Shown here: positions 1-48,333 of the stretch, one piece after another
Layout of the letters: every line of letters begins with the position of its first letter
Numbering within the stretch: the first letter of the stretch is position 1
Origin: an uncultured Lentimicrobiaceae bacterium
Lineage (GTDB): Bacteria > Bacteroidota > Bacteroidia > Bacteroidales > WCHB1-69
DNA length: 64,000 bases
NCBI GenBank assembly: GCA_964610025.1
Contig: CAZSTX010000001.1
Location: 8,219-72,218, forward strand
Reading direction: 5' to 3'
Translations under genes and position numbers: made by a program
Notes under the pieces: model-generated
The model's input: only the letters and a program-made list of their open reading frames with translations
Database searches by the model: none
What the model was told of the DNA's origin: nothing

Positions 1-319
1 TTCCTAAGAGTTTTATATGTGGTAAGCCTTGGGTGTAAGGGATTTTTTTTTGAGGAATCTTAAAATCAGGTTGAGTTAAGCGTTTGCCTACCATAGAGTT
101 GATTGTAGATACGTGAATACCAACATTATATCCTGTTGGTAATTTTAATACTATATGTAAACTGTCTGTGTTTTCGGCACGAGGAAGTATTTTGCCAGAA
201 AAATGACCGTTATGAGTGCTTATTTCAGCATCATCCCACACATGAACATTGTATTTTTTCAACACTTCTAATGCTGCTCCTTTATAACCTTGAAATATAT
301 CTTCGTTCATAGATTCCAT
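1..319 (-). CDS. gatD: Glu-tRNA(Gln) amidotransferase subunit D (GatD), 5' fragment; the gene runs off the left edge
   Basis: Absent from the ORF track because it has no stop in the window. My reverse-strand translation from the ATG at 317-319 gives MESMNEDIFQGYKGAALEVLKKYNVHVWDDAEISTHNGHFSGKILPRAENTDSLHIVLKLPTGYNVGIHVSTINSMVGKRLTQPDFKIPQKKIPYTQGLPHIKLLG. This is colinear with the GatD N-terminal barrel (KL.NGYN[IV]GI) and the entry into the asparaginase-like domain (LP.I.[IL].GTGGTI). It starts 7 nt after the gatE stop. Confidence 0.75.
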   Translation of the reverse strand, partial: MESMNEDIFQGYKGAALEVLKKYNVHVWDDAEISTHNGHFSGKILPRAENTDSLHIVLKLPTGYNVGIHVSTINSMVGKRLTQPDFKIPQKKIPYTQGLPHIKLLG

Positions 320-326
320 TATTTTT

Positions 327-2303
327 TTAAAGCATGTGTTTGGCTAATTCGCTTAAATTAATGTTGCCTAAACTTATTTTTTTTAATTGTCCCATCATGC
401 TGTTTGTTTTATCATCAGCATTTTTCTTCTTATTAATAGCTTGGTATTTTTTTGCAATTAGTGGTATTTGTTCTATTATTTCATCTTTTGTTTTTCGTTC
501 GAAATGGAGAGAGTTTAAAATAGAATTGAAATCCATAGCGGGATGGACAAACATTTTTTTTAACATTTTATAAGCGATAGCTTTGTCTATTTCTTCTTTT
601 TTCAAAAAAGCAAATAAGTCATATAGTCGCTTGATGTCAAATGGAATATGTTTGTGTTTCCCATGCAAATGCTTTAATGTTTGACCAAAAAACACCCCTA
701 TGTATTTGGGCGAATAGTGTAGCTTGTCAACTATTTTTTTTATGAGGGGTAAATAGTTGTTTGTAAAAATATACGCATAACTATCTTCAGGGATATCCCA
801 TACTTTTAATTGCTCATAAGATAGTGAAATTGATTGAGGAAGTGTGTTTTTTATTTTTTGAATTAAGTTGTCGTCAATAATAGTAGGTGGGCTATCGGTA
901 TCGGGATACATGCGGTCTTTTCCAGGTAGCACTCTTTTAAAGGCAGTAGTGCCATCAGCAAATGCTTTGCGTGTTTCTTTAGGTACTCCGTCAAATGCCA
1001 TTAGCGAACGTTCTTCTATTACTTGTAGTGCTGTTTGTAAATCGTTTTTGTTAGTCCAAAAGATAATTTGTGCATCTTGCTCTTTTGCTTGAAGTTGCTG
1101 TTGTATCTTTTTGATAAAACAGAGGTCTAATTCATTGTTTATGTCTTCGTTGCAAACCATATTGGGAATTGCAAGACAAGCTATTGTTTTTAAACGGTGA
1201 ATGTATTCGTCGTAAAATGCTTTATTGGGTTGCGTGAAATGGGATAATAAACCTGCGAAATGAGGTAAGTTTACTGCTACAAGGCTATCGTTTTGTTTAA
1301 ATGCTTTGCTGATAGGTGGATATGCTGTTGAAAAATCATTACTGTTTAATGTGATATATTGCATTTTCCAATTTTCTTTTTTAATACGTTTTTGTAGTTT
1401 TTCTTTGATAGCCAACAAAGCCCACTGTCGAAAACATTCGTTATGGCTCAATGCAGGTAGCCATTTAGTATGTGCTACTCCTTTGATTTCTATGCGTGTG
1501 CCTCCTTTACAGCTTACATTCACATCTTGGCGTCCTGTTCCTATTCCTGTGCGTACTTTTGCAGTGCTACGATTGAGAAAGCGAATGTAATTGCAAACGT
1601 CCATTACTTCTTTAGGGTGTTGCATATCAGGATAAGTAACTATTTCGACCATGGGCATTCCCATTCTATCTACACTGAAAATGCGTCTATGTCCTTCGTC
1701 TGAAATTTTACGGCACGAATCCTCTTCGATACTTAATTGTATTAGTCGTATTTTTTTATTATTTACAATTATTTCTCCTTCTATTCCTAATAGTGCAGTG
1801 CATTGAAATCCAGACGGCATAGAACCATCTAAATAAGGTTTTCTGCTAATATGTGTTTCGCTAACGGTATTCATTTTGCATGCTAAAGCAATTTCTAAAG
1901 CAATTGTTAAGGCTTCTTGGTTGATAGGGAAGGGCGGGCAGTCGTCAATGTCGTAGGTGCAGGCTGTTGTATTTGAAATGCGGTAAATAATTTCTTTTTT
2001 TGTTTTAAATTCCATCAGTGCCGATTCGTCATAAGTTCCTAATTCAGATAGCGTTGGACGCATGTGCCGTAATAGTTCGGCATCGTATTGATTGAGATTT
2101 TGATAAATGCCTGCTGGGCAATGACAAAATAGTTTTTCTTTTGTCAATAGTTGTTGATGTACTTCTAATCCTACTGAAAAGCCGATGCGTTGATAGTCTA
2201 TTGGGTGGGCATTTTTCAGCGCTATATAGCCAATTGATTGTTTGCTTGATTCGAAATTTTCTTTTGGATTGATAGGTTTCACTCTATTGCGTTTAGTATT
2301 CAA
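327..2303 (-). CDS. gatE: Glu-tRNA(Gln) amidotransferase subunit E (GatE, archaeal-type GatB paralog)
   Basis: 658 aa. It has the GatB/E cradle motifs GLEVHQQL..KLFCHC and RPTLSELG. It is about 150-180 aa longer than GatB, which is consistent with the GatE insertion domain. The tail motifs VPKETRKAFADGTTAFKRVLPGKDRMYPDTDSPP and MMGQLKK are present. gatD follows immediately downstream. Confidence 0.8.
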   Translation of the reverse strand: MNTKRNRVKPINPKENFESSKQSIGYIALKNAHPIDYQRIGFSVGLEVHQQLLTKEKLFCHCPAGIYQNLNQYDAELLRHMRPTLSELGTYDESALMEFKTKKEIIYRISNTTACTYDIDDCPPFPINQEALTIALEIALACKMNTVSETHISRKPYLDGSMPSGFQCTALLGIEGEIIVNNKKIRLIQLSIEEDSCRKISDEGHRRIFSVDRMGMPMVEIVTYPDMQHPKEVMDVCNYIRFLNRSTAKVRTGIGTGRQDVNVSCKGGTRIEIKGVAHTKWLPALSHNECFRQWALLAIKEKLQKRIKKENWKMQYITLNSNDFSTAYPPISKAFKQNDSLVAVNLPHFAGLLSHFTQPNKAFYDEYIHRLKTIACLAIPNMVCNEDINNELDLCFIKKIQQQLQAKEQDAQIIFWTNKNDLQTALQVIEERSLMAFDGVPKETRKAFADGTTAFKRVLPGKDRMYPDTDSPPTIIDDNLIQKIKNTLPQSISLSYEQLKVWDIPEDSYAYIFTNNYLPLIKKIVDKLHYSPKYIGVFFGQTLKHLHGKHKHIPFDIKRLYDLFAFLKKEEIDKAIAYKMLKKMFVHPAMDFNSILNSLHFERKTKDEIIEQIPLIAKKYQAINKKKNADDKTNSMMGQLKKISLGNINLSELAKHML

Positions 2304-2341
2304 TTGTTAAAATGGTGAAGTTGTTAGTTGTATAATATTAT

Positions 2342-4954
2342 TTATTGTTTAGATATGATTTCTATAATTTTTTCTACTGCTATTTTTAGTCCCTCGGGAT
2401 TTTTACCTCCTGCTGTGGCAAGTGTAGGTTGTCCACCGCCGCCACCTTGAATGAGTGGAGCAATTTCGCGTACTAATAGGGTAGCATTATAGCCTTTTTC
2501 TATCATATTATCAGATAAAGCTATAATAATATTTGCCTTTCCTTCTACATTACTTCCAAAGAGTATCAATGTGTCTTGCAAGCTGTTTTTTAATTGATAA
2601 GCTGCATTTTTAAGAAGTTCAGACGACATATTGTTGATGGATTGCAAAATATTGATGCCATTAATAGTAATCATTTCTTTTTTTACTTGATTTACAAAAT
2701 TAATGGTTTTTTCTTGTTCTAATACTTCGATAGTTTTACGGTAGTTTTCTAACTCTTGTGTTATTTTTTTTACAGCAGGAATGACTTGTGGAGCATTGAG
2801 CATTTCTTTTATTTCTTCTATTTGCTGTTGATAGTGGCGAATGTAGTCTTCTGCATTTTTGCCACTTACCGCTTCGATACGCCGTATGCCGGCTGCAATA
2901 GCACTTTCGCTGATGATTTTTACTAATCCTATATTGCCTGTAGCCGATGTGTGGGTGCCACCACAAAGCTCTATCGAGTCGCCAAATTGTATTACTCTGA
3001 CTGTATTACCGTATTTTTCGCCAAATAATGCAATTGCATCCAACGATTTAGCTGCATCTATTGATATGTTTCTAAGTTCTTTTAAAAGAATGTTTTCTCT
3101 TACTAAATCGTTGACAAGGTTTTCTACTCTTTCTAATTCTTCGTTGCTGACTTTTGAAAAATGGGAAAAATCGAAACGTAATCGTTCATGATTTACCAAT
3201 GAACCTTTTTGCTCGACATGTGTACCTAATACTTTACGCAAGGCATAATGTATTAAATGCGTAGCAGTATGGTTGTTTTGTGTAGCCATGCGTGTTTCTA
3301 TATTTACTTTTGCAACGAATGTATTTTCTGTATTTTCAGGAAGAGTAGGAGCTATGTGTAGTGTTAAATTGTTTTCTTTGATAGTGTTGATAATAGTAAT
3401 TTTTTCGTTGGCATTTTCCAATGTGCCACTGTCGCCTACTTGCCCTCCGGCTTCGGCATAGAAAGGTGTTTTGTTGAGTACTAATTGGTAGAATTGTTTT
3501 CCTTTTACTTTTACTAATCTGTATTTTATTATTTTACATTCATATTCTAAAGTGTCGTAACCAATAAATTCGGTTTGCGAAGCATTAGGAATTACTTCTT
3601 GCCAATCGTCTGTTTGCAAGGTAGCTACAGCACGTGAACGGTCTTTTTGTGCTTGCAATCCTTCATGGAAAGTTTGCATATCGACACTATAACCTTTTTC
3701 TTTTGCCATAAGCTGTGTTAAATCGATAGGAAAACCGTAGGTGTCGAAAAGTTCAAAAGCAAAATTGCCATTAATAACCGTATCGGTGGTATGTGATTGT
3801 ATGTAGTGTTCAAACTTTTGGATACCTTGCGATAAAGTTCGCAAAAATGATTGTTCTTCTTCTAATAATACTTTGATAATTAGCTCTTGTTGTAGTTGTA
3901 ATTCTGGAAAATGTGTCCCCATTGTTTTTACTAAGGTAGGGACTAATGTTGCAAGAAAAGCTTTATCAAAGTTTAAAAAAGTAAAGCCATAACGTACAGC
4001 ACGTCTTAAAATACGGCGTACGACATAACCGGCTCCTGTATTAGAGGGGAGTTGCCCATCGGCAATAGTGAAGCAAACAGCTCGTAAGTGGTCTGCAATT
4101 ACACGCATAGCGATATCGCAATCTTTGTTGTTACCATAGTTTTTTTGTGATAAAGAGGCAATTTTTTGAATGAGTGTTTGAAATATATCGGTGTCATAAT
4201 TCGATTGTTTGTTTTGCAGTATCATACACAAGCGTTCTAATCCCATGCCTGTATCTACGTAATTATGGGCAAGTGGCATTAAGCTGCCGTTAGCTTGACG
4301 ATTGTATTGGATGAAAACTAAATTCCATATTTCGATTACTAAGGGGTGGTCTTTATTGACTAATTCTTTGCCCGATATTTTCTTTTTTTCTTCTTCTGAG
4401 CGTATGTCTACGTGTATTTCTGAACAAGGACCACAAGGACCTGTATCGCCCATTTCCCAGAAATTATCTTTTTTAGTTCCAAACAATATTTTATCTTTTG
4501 GCAGTATTGTTTCCCAAATTTGATAAGATTCCTTGTCTTTTTCTGTTCCGTCTTTAACATCGCCACCAAAAACGGTAACGTATAGGTTTTGTGGCGATAT
4601 TTTAAATGTTTCTGTTAGTAATTCCCATGCCCACTCGATAGCTTCTTTTTTAAAATAATCGCCAAACGACCAATTGCCAAGCATTTCGAACATGGTGTGA
4701 TGGTAGGTGTCTCTTCCAACTTCTTCTAAATCGTTGTGTTTCCCAGAAACTCGCAAGCATTTTTGACTATTGGCTATGCGATCGTATTGTGGTAAAGTGT
4801 TTCCTAAAAAAACATCTTTAAAACGATTCATACCTGCATTTGTGAACATTAAACTTGGGTCGTTTTTAACGATAATAGAGTCAGAAGGGATAATCTGATG
4901 GCGTTTTTTTTCAAAAAAATCTAAAAATGTCTTACGTATTTCACTTGCAATCAT
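2342..4954 (-). CDS. alaS: Alanine--tRNA ligase
   Basis: 870 aa. The N-terminus is FLDFFEKKRHQIIPSDSIIVKNDPSLMFTNAGMNRFKDVFLG. The editing-domain HxxxH (HTATHLIHYAL) and CGGTH motifs and a C-terminal DHHA1-like GGGGG segment are present. Confidence 0.97.
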   Translation of the reverse strand: MIASEIRKTFLDFFEKKRHQIIPSDSIIVKNDPSLMFTNAGMNRFKDVFLGNTLPQYDRIANSQKCLRVSGKHNDLEEVGRDTYHHTMFEMLGNWSFGDYFKKEAIEWAWELLTETFKISPQNLYVTVFGGDVKDGTEKDKESYQIWETILPKDKILFGTKKDNFWEMGDTGPCGPCSEIHVDIRSEEEKKKISGKELVNKDHPLVIEIWNLVFIQYNRQANGSLMPLAHNYVDTGMGLERLCMILQNKQSNYDTDIFQTLIQKIASLSQKNYGNNKDCDIAMRVIADHLRAVCFTIADGQLPSNTGAGYVVRRILRRAVRYGFTFLNFDKAFLATLVPTLVKTMGTHFPELQLQQELIIKVLLEEEQSFLRTLSQGIQKFEHYIQSHTTDTVINGNFAFELFDTYGFPIDLTQLMAKEKGYSVDMQTFHEGLQAQKDRSRAVATLQTDDWQEVIPNASQTEFIGYDTLEYECKIIKYRLVKVKGKQFYQLVLNKTPFYAEAGGQVGDSGTLENANEKITIINTIKENNLTLHIAPTLPENTENTFVAKVNIETRMATQNNHTATHLIHYALRKVLGTHVEQKGSLVNHERLRFDFSHFSKVSNEELERVENLVNDLVRENILLKELRNISIDAAKSLDAIALFGEKYGNTVRVIQFGDSIELCGGTHTSATGNIGLVKIISESAIAAGIRRIEAVSGKNAEDYIRHYQQQIEEIKEMLNAPQVIPAVKKITQELENYRKTIEVLEQEKTINFVNQVKKEMITINGINILQSINNMSSELLKNAAYQLKNSLQDTLILFGSNVEGKANIIIALSDNMIEKGYNATLLVREIAPLIQGGGGGQPTLATAGGKNPEGLKIAVEKIIEIISKQ

Positions 4955-16590: not shown

Positions 16591-16602
16591 AGAAAATTTT
16601 TG

Positions 16603-16673
16603 TTGACCAACTAGGATTCGAACCCAGACAGACAGAACCAGAATCTGTAGTGCTACCGTTACACCATTGGTCA
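16603..16673 (-). tRNA. tRNA-Gln (anticodon CUG)
   Basis: I folded the cloverleaf by hand from 5'-TGACCAATGGTGTAACGGTAGCACTACAGATTCTGGTTCTGTCTGTCTGGGTTCGAATCCTAGTTGGTCAA-3'. It has a 7-bp acceptor stem (U1-A72), a D-loop with GG, a 5-bp anticodon stem, the loop TTCTGGT (anticodon CTG), a T-arm CTGGG/TTCGAAT/CCTAG and discriminator A. No CCA is encoded. Confidence 0.93.
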
Positions 16674-45797: not shown

Positions 45798-46595
45798 TTA
45801 ATAGGGTTTTGCTATTAAATAATAAGCTGTAGTGTAAAAGTTGCGTAAGTAGGGGATCCATTTAAATGGAAATACTACTTTTTTTGGACGTAGTTGAAAT
45901 TTAATTTCATAATTGGGATTAATAAAGTAGTAATCGTTTTTTAGAATGGTGTATTTTTCTTTTCGTAATATTCGATGAAAACGTTCAATAGAAAGTCCTG
46001 TTTCTTTAATTTCTAATAAATCAACGGGATTTTCTCCAAAATAAAGTAATAGTTTCCGATAAAATGGTGTAGGCAGTAAATGTATGTAGGGTATTTTCGA
46101 TAATTTACTTTGACATATTTGCTGGTGTCCACCAAATGGGTTTTGCCATGGAGGAAATCCGAAAAAAATAATACCTTCTGGTTTTAAAAATTTTTTAACA
46201 TATTGCATAAACAATTCTTGCTGATGGATATGCTCAATAACATCGCGCATAATAATTATATCAAAAACAAGATTTTCTCTATCAATATGGTAAATGTTTG
46301 AATGTATAAATTCTATTTTATCTTTGTGTGGATGGTCGTTATAAAAAACTTTTGCATTCTTAATTTGTTGTTCATTGATATCAATTCCAACACATCGGCA
46401 TTGCATATCTAAAAAAGCTTTAAGATTACCGCCTTCGCCACATCCTATTTCTAAAATTTCGGTATCTTTGTTGATAGAAAATACTTTATTAATATAAGGA
46501 ATGACATGTTTTTTAGTAGTAAAAACTTGTTCTTCAAAATAAAGTTTTCTATTTAAATATCGCTCGTGCATTTTGTTTTTTTTAAGAACGGTCAA
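45798..46595 (-). CDS. Class I SAM-dependent methyltransferase
   Basis: 265 aa with motif [12 protein letters not shown] and motif post-[14 protein letters not shown]. An alternative start at 46571 (MHERYL) would remove the 14-nt overlap with aspS. Confidence 0.8.
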
Positions 46596-48333
46596 TTTTT
46601 AGAAATAATTCTTTTAGTTGTTCGCTACTAATTTCGTAGGGTGCATTAATCATAACGTCTCGTCCGAGATTGTTTTTAGGAAAGGCTATACAATCGCGTA
46701 TAGAATCAATGCCATTGAATACTGCACACATACGGTCAAATCCGAAAGCGATACCACCGTGAGGAGGAGCACCGTATTCAAAAGCATTCATCAAAAAACC
46801 AAATTGTTTTTGCGCTTCATTATCTGTAAATCCTAAGGATTGAAATATTTTATTTTGCAAATCTCTCTTATGGATACGAATAGAACCTCCACCAATTTCT
46901 ACCCCATTGATTACTAAATCGTATGCATTAGCGTGTATGTTGGCTATATGTTCGCTATCTAATAAAGGAATATCTTCTGGTTTAGGTGAAGTAAATGGGT
47001 GATGTTTAGCATAAAATCGTTGCGTTTCTTCGTCCCATTCAAACATTGGAAAATCAACTACCCAAACAGCTTTGAAATGTTCTTTGTTGCGTAATTCTAA
47101 TCGATTACCCATTTCTAAACGTAATTCTCCGAGAGCTTTTCTTGTTTTTTCTGTTTTCCCTGAAAGAATGAGTATTAAATCATCTTTTGTAGCTTTAAAG
47201 GCATCAGCAACTTTTTTTAGGTCTTCTTGATTGTAAAATTTATCAATAGAAGATTTAAAAGTGTTGTTTTCTAAACATTGTATATATACCATGCCGTTTG
47301 CACCTATTTGAGGGCGTTTGACAAATTCGGTTAATTCGTCAATTTGTTTGCGTGTGTACTTACTACATCCTTTAGCACAAATACCTATTATTGATTCGGC
47401 TTCATTAAAAATTTTGAAATCTCTATGTTGTAGAAGATTATTTAGCTCTACAAACTGCATGTCAAAACGTATATCTGGTTTGTCGCTACCATAAAATTTC
47501 ATAGCATCATGATAAGTAATGCGTTGAAAGTCTGATAATTCTATATTCTTAAATTTTCTAAATAAATGAATAAATAATTTTTCAAATATTTTTATTACAT
47601 CTTCTTGTGTAACAAACGACATTTCGCAATCGATTTGTGTAAATTCAGGCTGACGATCAGCTCTGAGGTCTTCGTCTCTAAAACAACGTACAATTTGAAA
47701 ATACTTATCTACTCCTGCTATCATTAGCAATTGTTTAAATTGCTGAGGTGATTGTGGAAGAGCATAAAACTGTCCTGCATTTAATCGAGAAGGAACCACA
47801 AAGTCGCGTGCACCTTCAGGTGTTGAACGAATGAGAAAAGGGGTTTCTATTTCTAAAAAATCAATATTATTTAAATAATTACGTATTTCAATAGCTAATT
47901 GATGACGAAATATTATTTTTTTTTGAACATTATTACGTCTTAAATCTAAATAACGGTATTGCATGCGTAATTCTTCGCCTCCGTCTGTATGGTCTTCGAT
48001 AGTAAAAGGAGGTAATTTAGAAGTATTTAGAATATTAATTTTTTTTACATTTATTTCAATGTCGCCAGTAGGAATAGATTTGTTTTTATTAAAACGTTCT
48101 ACTACTATTCCTTCTACTTGTATTACATATTCACGTCCTAATTTACGTGCTTTTTCGCACAATTCACTATTAGTATCCATGTTAAATGCTAATTGTGTAA
48201 TGCCATAACGGTCACGCAAATCAATAAAAGTCATTCCGCCTAAATTGCGTATGCGTTGAACCCATCCACAAAGGTGAACATGTTGCTCTATATTGCTGCT
48301 GTTTAATTCTCCACAAGTATTTGTTCTATACAT
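46582..48333 (-). CDS. aspS: Aspartate--tRNA ligase
   Basis: 583 aa with an OB-fold N-terminus ([22 protein letters not shown]), class II motifs ([28 protein letters not shown]) and the bacterial GAD insertion. Confidence 0.96.

Follow-up and report, generated by a model that had tools for sequence, protein, structure and literature searches.

Reviews and textbooks treat the transfer RNA (tRNA) amidotransferase GatDE as an archaeal signature. According to a 2022 review, the enzyme today occurs solely in archaea, and the fact that it is specific for archaeal tRNAGln has been invoked to explain why archaea never acquired glutaminyl-tRNA synthetase (GlnRS). Amidation of Glu-tRNAGln is the only reaction known for this family (2022 review). 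For the amidotransferase GatCAB, PMC4206432 describes Thermus, Deinococcus, and Bdellovibrio, in which the enzyme occurs beside both GlnRS and asparaginyl-tRNA synthetase (AsnRS) and serves asparagine synthesis. Here, we analyze a gatE-gatD gene pair in a 64,000-nucleotide (nt) stretch of DNA from an uncultured Lentimicrobiaceae bacterium of the order Bacteroidales. This whole stretch is referred to as the window (G000:C1:8219-72218). Its host genome is 1.95 Mb in size and 98.3% complete, with a GC content of 30.5% and a contamination estimate of 0.59%. The original prediction, which was made from the letters of the window, was that it holds an archaeal-type GatE-GatD pair in a bacterial chromosome. 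This pair is real, with both subunits scoring above the cut-offs of their family models.

The GatE protein passes both NCBIfam equivalog cut-offs (NF003107, 474.3 bits with a cut-off of 456; TIGR00134, 402.3 bits with a cut-off of 319.55), and the NF003107 alignment takes in residues 35-641. The best GatB model, in contrast, gives the same protein 135.3 bits against a cut-off of 338, and all of the GatB equivalog cut-offs were failed. The Pfam GatB_N match runs across residues 43-481 although the profile has 277 positions, and because of this stretching the GatE insertion is taken to be present. The tail is matched by Pfam GatB_Yqey with 26.1 bits, slightly below the gathering score of 27. The cradle domain, insertion, and tail that had been proposed for a GatE of 658 residues are therefore borne out by the profile matches. 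The cradle and catalytic motifs GLEVHQQL, EED, RQDVNVS, and RMYPDTD were all found. Of the 86 columns conserved in archaeal GatE, 55 are retained by 90% or more of the bacterial sequences, and 21 archaeal-conserved columns are altered in most bacterial copies, several of them within the insertion domain. Compared with GatE of Pyrococcus abyssi (PDB 1ZQ1 chain C), the window protein scores 288 bits.

Only the start of gatD lies in the window. The 106-residue fragment encoded there matches Pfam GatD_N with 44 bits, and in the genome the gene is complete, encoding 464 residues (translation P0004) and ending at G000:C1:7143, which is 1076 nt beyond the left edge of the window. The whole protein scores 490 bits with TIGR02153, for which the cut-off is 324. 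Thus, the gene continues undisrupted past the window, and the proposal that its first 106 residues form a GatD N-terminal domain leading into an asparaginase-like domain proved correct. Compared with P. abyssi GatD (PDB 1ZQ1 chain A), the protein scores 388 bits, with GTGGTIAS, HGTDT, and RVRKMH aligned and retained. With these motifs, the catalytic residues of the asparaginase domain (Thr, Thr-Asp, and Lys) are in place. On these sequence criteria, the identity of the gene pair as an intact and presumably working GatDE, belonging to the bacterial clade described below, is secure.

A bacterial clade of GatDE

Each of the 7 other species of the genus has GatE above the cut-off, as do 21 of 41 relatives. 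When the order was sampled evenly, 91 of 201 species had GatE above the cut-off, and it was present in 80 of 168 genera. When one genome per GTDB species was scanned, relatives of GatE were present in more than 561 species genomes, and the best 80 of these are nearly all Bacteroidales metagenome-assembled genomes (MAGs) of digesters, sediments, and rumen. A second query, taken from the next clade, yielded more than 586 additional species with GatE relatives. These belong to Ignavibacteriota, Chlorobiota, Kapabacteria, Calditrichota, Phycisphaerae and other Planctomycetota, Gemmatimonadota, Elusimicrobiota, Latescibacterota, Marinimicrobia, and Myxococcota. The bacterial GatDE clade spans well over a thousand species, and the present genome is one member of it.

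A library-wide search returned 569 GatE representatives at E <= 1e-30, and a first tree was built on 120 of them, with the clades labeled via named genome records. This tree has two clades with a fully supported branch between them, one bacterial and the other archaeal with Heimdallarchaeota at its base. A rooted tree of 78 rows was computed using IQ-TREE with LG+G4, and six GatB sequences served as the root. In this tree, GatE is a single group with a Shimodaira-Hasegawa-like approximate likelihood ratio test (SH-aLRT) value of 100. The 36 bacterial GatE rows all fall into a single clade (SH-aLRT 100, stem length 0.59), within which the Bacteroidales sequences form one subclade (SH-aLRT 100, stem length 0.72). 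A single origin of the bacterial GatE clade is well supported. Heimdallarchaeota GatE appears as the sister of the bacterial clade with SH-aLRT 93. Forcing all archaeal GatE together costs only 1.5 log-likelihood units, and archaeal monophyly is not rejected by the approximately unbiased (AU) test (p 0.48). Therefore, the tree fixes neither the donor nor the direction of the transfer. At five columns conserved by other archaea, 7/7 Heimdallarchaeota and 36/36 bacteria differ from the archaeal residue. The states that these two groups have in common are Y157, I162 (M in the present genome), P163, S196 (A in four bacterial sequences), and D468.

Phylogeny had been proposed as a check on the original prediction. 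As run on GatE, it places the bacterial sequences in a clade of their own, and the pair is not an isolated acquisition. The outcome that had been named as refuting the prediction, a broad and already documented bacterial GatDE clade, holds by half. Such a clade exists and annotation models already name bacterial gatE and gatD genes, but no paper on bacterial GatDE turned up in literature searches. Taken as a whole, the clade is under-described.

Two further observations were made on these sequences. The motif reads REDVNVS in 15 of 15 bacterial GatE proteins checked (L023, L028, L031, L171, and L179 among them), while RQDVNVS is found in archaeal GatE and in the GatE of the window. Also, the GatE of one contig labeled Limnocylindrales bacterium (L291, DATHCJ010000022.1) falls inside Bathyarchaeia with full support, which points either to an archaeal contig that was mis-binned or to a recent, separate transfer.

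An archaeal-type gene pair in a bacterial genome could also be an artefact, whether from a chimeric contig, from archaeal sequence contaminating the bin, or from a recent transfer into this genome only. The sole support for this explanation is the prior expectation that GatDE is archaeal. The stretch is present in sequencing runs of three studies, from a bioreactor (the likely source), soil, and wastewater. The alaS/gatE junction at 2304-2341 is bridged without mismatch by four records (X3 record 13, X4 record 21, X6 record 28, and X1 record 1), and the gatE/gatD junction is crossed, again without mismatch, by contigs from two more studies (X4 record 18 and X6 record 25). Contigs from three independent studies thus cross both junctions with zero mismatches, which excludes the chimeric assembly that the original prediction had wanted checked. 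The GC content at third codon positions (GC3) is 0.288 for gatE and 0.295 for gatD, equal to that of alaS (0.280). Orthologues throughout the genus, bacterial gene neighborhoods in 80 loci, and the low contamination estimate given above also stand against an artefact. With bridging contigs, host-like GC3, and genus-wide orthologues all refuting it, we rejected this explanation and regard its remaining probability as negligible.

The original prediction also held that any transfer was not recent, and several findings agree with this. When compared with L022, whose orthologue is the closest at 77% identity, gatE has a ratio of nonsynonymous to synonymous substitution rates (dN/dS) of 0.12 and gatD one of 0.08, and both genes are under purifying selection. 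These values near 0.1, a GC3 like that of alaS, and the occurrence of the pair across the genus and in nearly half of the sampled species of the order (7/7 and 91/201) all indicate an old acquisition. The best explanation is that a single, old inter-domain event was followed by vertical inheritance of gatE-gatD in Bacteroidales.

Gene layout and neighborhood

Positions 1-4954 of the window carry three co-oriented open reading frames (ORFs) on the minus strand, which are alaS, gatE, and the start of gatD. These and other features are collected in Table 1. The 7-nt gap between gatE and gatD that had been noted earlier is confirmed by the ORF list, and because this spacer is so short, we read the two genes as an operon. 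A scan for promoters and terminators at the locus gave nothing above chance level, and there is no RNA dataset among the sequencing runs that carry the stretch.

Table 1. Positions of the GatDE genes and related features in the window.
Feature	Position	Strand	Description
gatE	327..2303	-	658 residues, TTG start; kinase/amidotransferase subunit; has a cradle domain, an AspRS-like insertion, and a YqeY-like tail
gatD 5' part	2..319	-	First 106 codons; rest of the gene is past the left edge of the window
gatE/gatD spacer	320..326	-	7 nt, from gatE stop to gatD start
alaS/gatE spacer	2304..2341	-	38 nt; no terminator-like site on the minus strand
alaS	2342..4954	-	Alanyl-tRNA synthetase (AlaRS), 870 residues; upstream neighbor, co-oriented; Pfam tRNA-synt_2c 661.5 bits
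tRNA-Gln(CUG)	16602..16673	-	Found by ARAGORN; candidate substrate tRNA, bacterial type, U1-A72
aspS	46582..48333	-	Bacterial-type aspartyl-tRNA synthetase (AspRS), 583 residues; single copy in the genome; TIGR00459 730.9 bits

The original prediction described the context of the pair as otherwise bacterial. This agrees with the AlaRS encoded by the upstream ORF and with the bacterial flanks at the 80 related loci. Across these loci, the pairing of gatE with gatD is constant in most, while the flanking genes vary and are bacterial housekeeping genes. When gatE has no adjacent gatD, the latter was found elsewhere in the genome in 4 of 5 genomes checked. The position of alaS next to gatE is common only to the closest relative (L022), and no conserved functional neighbor was found around gatE-gatD in the 80 loci. 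Flanking genes seen include those for OstA/LptD-like, FtsX/MacB, NamZ, NUDIX, SLT, ABC transporter, U32 peptidase, FkbH, and MBOAT proteins. In one uncultured Bacteroidales MAG (L067, CAWEYU010000008.1), gatE and gatD are apparently fused into one ORF of 1123 residues.

Downstream of gatD, to the left of the window, lies a region of about 1.4 kb without any ORF of at least 100 residues (L001:1-1425, corresponding to G000:C1:5718-7143). This region contains three copies of a repeat of about 300 nt, a run of N, and five 88-nt units with the GC-rich palindromes CGCCCATAGGGCG and CTGCCCTACGGGCAG. The region matched nothing in Rfam, and Tandem Repeats Finder made no call in it.

Candidate roles beside the direct synthetases

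The original prediction suggested that GatDE may be a recruited paralog for another aminoacyl-tRNA or may replace GlnRS, GatCAB, or both, and neither replacement is supported by the gene inventory. The present genome encodes GlnRS (768.9 bits), AsnRS (625.5 bits), one bacterial-type glutamyl-tRNA synthetase (GluRS), and one AspRS, and GlnRS was found in 193 of the 201 order genomes. Profile searches of the present genome found no GatA, and the GatB model matches only GatE itself. GatB was found in none of the 41 relatives searched, whether or not they have GatE, and Bacteroides thetaiotaomicron is likewise without it. Since GlnRS coexists with GatDE, the relatives searched showed no GatB irrespective of GatE, and some Bacteroidota carry both GatE and GatB, GatDE is an addition to these systems instead of a replacement for them. 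The same pattern extends beyond the phylum, as five GatDE carriers of four other phyla all have GlnRS, and the three of them that were checked are all without GatB. Complementarity between GlnRS and GatE was considered, as GatE occurs in 6 of the 8 genomes of the order that have no GlnRS. Among genomes at least 90% complete, this signal vanishes (GlnRS is absent in 2 of 77 genomes with GatE versus 2 of 103 without), and the idea was dropped.

A few relatives have unusual inventories. Two members of the same family have a duplicated synthetase, with two GluRS genes in one (G021) and two AspRS genes in the other (G024), while the other relatives have one of each. In a genome of the same order that is 99% complete (G105), the GlnRS model has no match at all, not even the usual weak one to GluRS, and the GatE match contains TGA. 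An unusual genetic code or a peculiarity of the assembly could account for this pattern.

By analogy with archaeal GatDE, GatE would bind a mis-acylated tRNA and phosphorylate its side-chain carboxyl using ATP, GatD, as an asparaginase-type amidase, would free ammonia from Gln or Asn, and GatE would then amidate the activated intermediate. Our tentative first choice, which we hold as possible rather than probable, is that the bacterial pair forms an auxiliary or repair route from Glu-tRNAGln to Gln-tRNAGln alongside GlnRS. This is the one reaction known for the family. GatDE would rescue tRNAGln that has been mischarged by GluRS, and it would supply Gln-tRNAGln when free glutamine is scarce. 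A route in which free Gln is not the amino acid that is acylated might be useful to this bacterium because no glutamine synthetase was detected in its genome, where Gln-synt_C gave no match of any type at 98% completeness. Glutamine synthetase is present in 3 of the 7 other species of the genus. Its absence was rejected as a correlate of GatE, since most relatives with GatE do have the enzyme. We infer which substrate is used, that a U1-A72 tRNA is accepted, and what the enzyme does in the cell. Several observations weigh against an auxiliary glutamine route. With GlnRS so widespread in the order, the route is not required on paper, and at least five Bacteroidota genomes in the phylum-wide sample have GatB as well as GatE. 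GatD itself needs an amide donor, and glutamine scarcity is not obviously relieved by an enzyme of this kind. The archaeal enzyme reads A1:U72 of tRNAGln (2022 review), whereas both tRNAGln genes of the present genome have U1-A72 according to ARAGORN, as do those of 28 relatives. Moreover, some relatives that have GatE and some that do not share one and the same tRNAGln sequence. In GluRS, the residue aligned with R358 of the Thermus thermophilus enzyme is Arg in 31 of 31 relatives and in the single GluRS of the host, and in the alignment of these 31 sequences, no column splits the 14 with GatE from the 17 without. We take R358 in T. thermophilus to be associated with discrimination against tRNAGln. 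As a separate observation on the tRNAs of the host, the acceptor stem of tRNA-Glu(UUC) (G000:C41:15827-15899) is topped by a G1-U72 wobble.

Another explanation, which we consider somewhat less likely than the auxiliary glutamine route, is that GatDE has been retuned to U1-A72 tRNAs and amidates Asp-tRNAAsn, either alone or in addition to Glu-tRNAGln. Species that have neither AsnA nor AsnB would then make asparagine in a tRNA-dependent way, like Thermus, Deinococcus, and Bdellovibrio with GatCAB. U1-A72 is common to the tRNAAsn and tRNAGln of the present genome, which fits this idea, as does the state of asparagine metabolism. A profile search of the present genome found no AsnA, and its sole AsnB-like protein scores 213.8 bits against a cut-off of 267.1. 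This protein (620 residues, L349:329-2191, G000:C7) begins with MKGLL and is without the N-terminal Cys (Cys2) nucleophile. The model that it matches next best is one for a lasso-peptide cyclase. Relatives with GatE less often have a canonical AsnA or AsnB (3 of 21) than those without GatE (12 of 20). Across the order, 43 of the 92 genomes with GatE have AsnB above the cut-off, versus 74 of the 109 without (odds ratio 0.42, nominal p 0.003, uncorrected for relatedness). These counts do show a real negative association between GatE and AsnB, yet one that falls far short of complementarity, and the 43 genomes that have both genes count against an asparagine route. AsnRS is present in all five checked genomes with GatE but without AsnB, matching the precedent of an amidotransferase beside GlnRS and AsnRS (PMC4206432). 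However, archaeal GatDE is reported to be specific for Glu-tRNAGln (2022 review), and several Bacteroidota have GatCAB too. The AspRS of the host also counts against this route. The present genome showed neither a second AspRS nor one that looks non-discriminating, and among 38 AspRS sequences, no column splits genomes with GatE from those without. All 38 have the R[NDK]LGG motif in common and retain its Leu, which is presumably the discriminating state. Mutagenesis on Pseudomonas AspRS is reportedly the basis for reading the motif in this way. A broader form of the proposal, which we regard as rather unlikely, is that bacterial GatDE is not a redundant archaeal copy but has been retuned to U1-A72 tRNAs to make Asn-tRNAAsn or both amide aminoacyl-tRNAs. 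If this is true, the retuned enzyme would be the only asparagine source in many Bacteroidales without AsnA and canonical AsnB, the present one included, and it would represent a third, undescribed solution to tRNA-dependent asparagine synthesis.

No co-adaptation of partners is visible in GluRS, AspRS, or tRNAGln. This finding would be consistent with a non-translational or regulatory role, in which tRNA-dependent amidation feeds a non-ribosomal process or the enzyme acts on another substrate altogether. The purifying selection on the pair, which persists despite complete direct pathways and sometimes GatCAB as well, points the same way, as do the 21 altered columns of bacterial GatE with their share in the insertion domain. 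We nevertheless find such a role improbable, as the flanking genes are unrelated housekeeping genes that hint at no pathway, and the full tRNA amidotransferase architecture and the catalytic motifs are retained. Taking the evidence together, we would rank the auxiliary glutamine route highest, followed by the asparagine or dual route, the non-translational role, and finally an artefact.

Comparison with archaeal GatDE and GatCAB

A monophyletic bacterial GatDE clade, whose hosts have GlnRS and U1-A72 tRNAGln, contradicts the description of this enzyme as restricted to archaea. The clade also bears on the proposal that the last ancestor common to all life (LUCA) had both GatDE and GatCAB, with bacterial GatE being the sister either of Heimdallarchaeota GatE or of all archaeal GatE. 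In addition, it raises the question of what role an extra tRNA amidotransferase plays in cells that already have the direct synthetases. The present window provides one more member of this clade.

The locus resembles archaeal GatDE, as represented by the structures from P. abyssi (1ZQ1) and Methanothermobacter thermautotrophicus (2D6F), in having the same two subunits, gene pairing, and domain order. The matches to 1ZQ1 and 2D6F are full-length, with 388 and 370 bits for GatD and 288 and 267 bits for GatE, respectively. Unlike archaea, which are without GlnRS and have a non-discriminating archaeal GluRS, the bacterial host has GlnRS along with a GluRS of bacterial type. Its tRNAGln has U1-A72 instead of the archaeal A1-U72, and the bacterial copies form a separate, fully supported clade on a long stem. 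The nearest archaeal branch is the GatE of Heimdallarchaeota (Asgard), with SH-aLRT 93, yet this protein has 37% identity to the GatE of the window (P0043), and the grouping is not robust given the AU result for archaeal monophyly (p 0.48). The setting of the pair is like that of GatCAB in Thermus, Deinococcus, and Bdellovibrio, a tRNA-dependent amidotransferase likewise found beside both direct synthetases, and GatE and GatB have a common catalytic cradle. It differs from GatCAB in having no GatC and in its amidase, which is the asparaginase-like GatD and not GatA.

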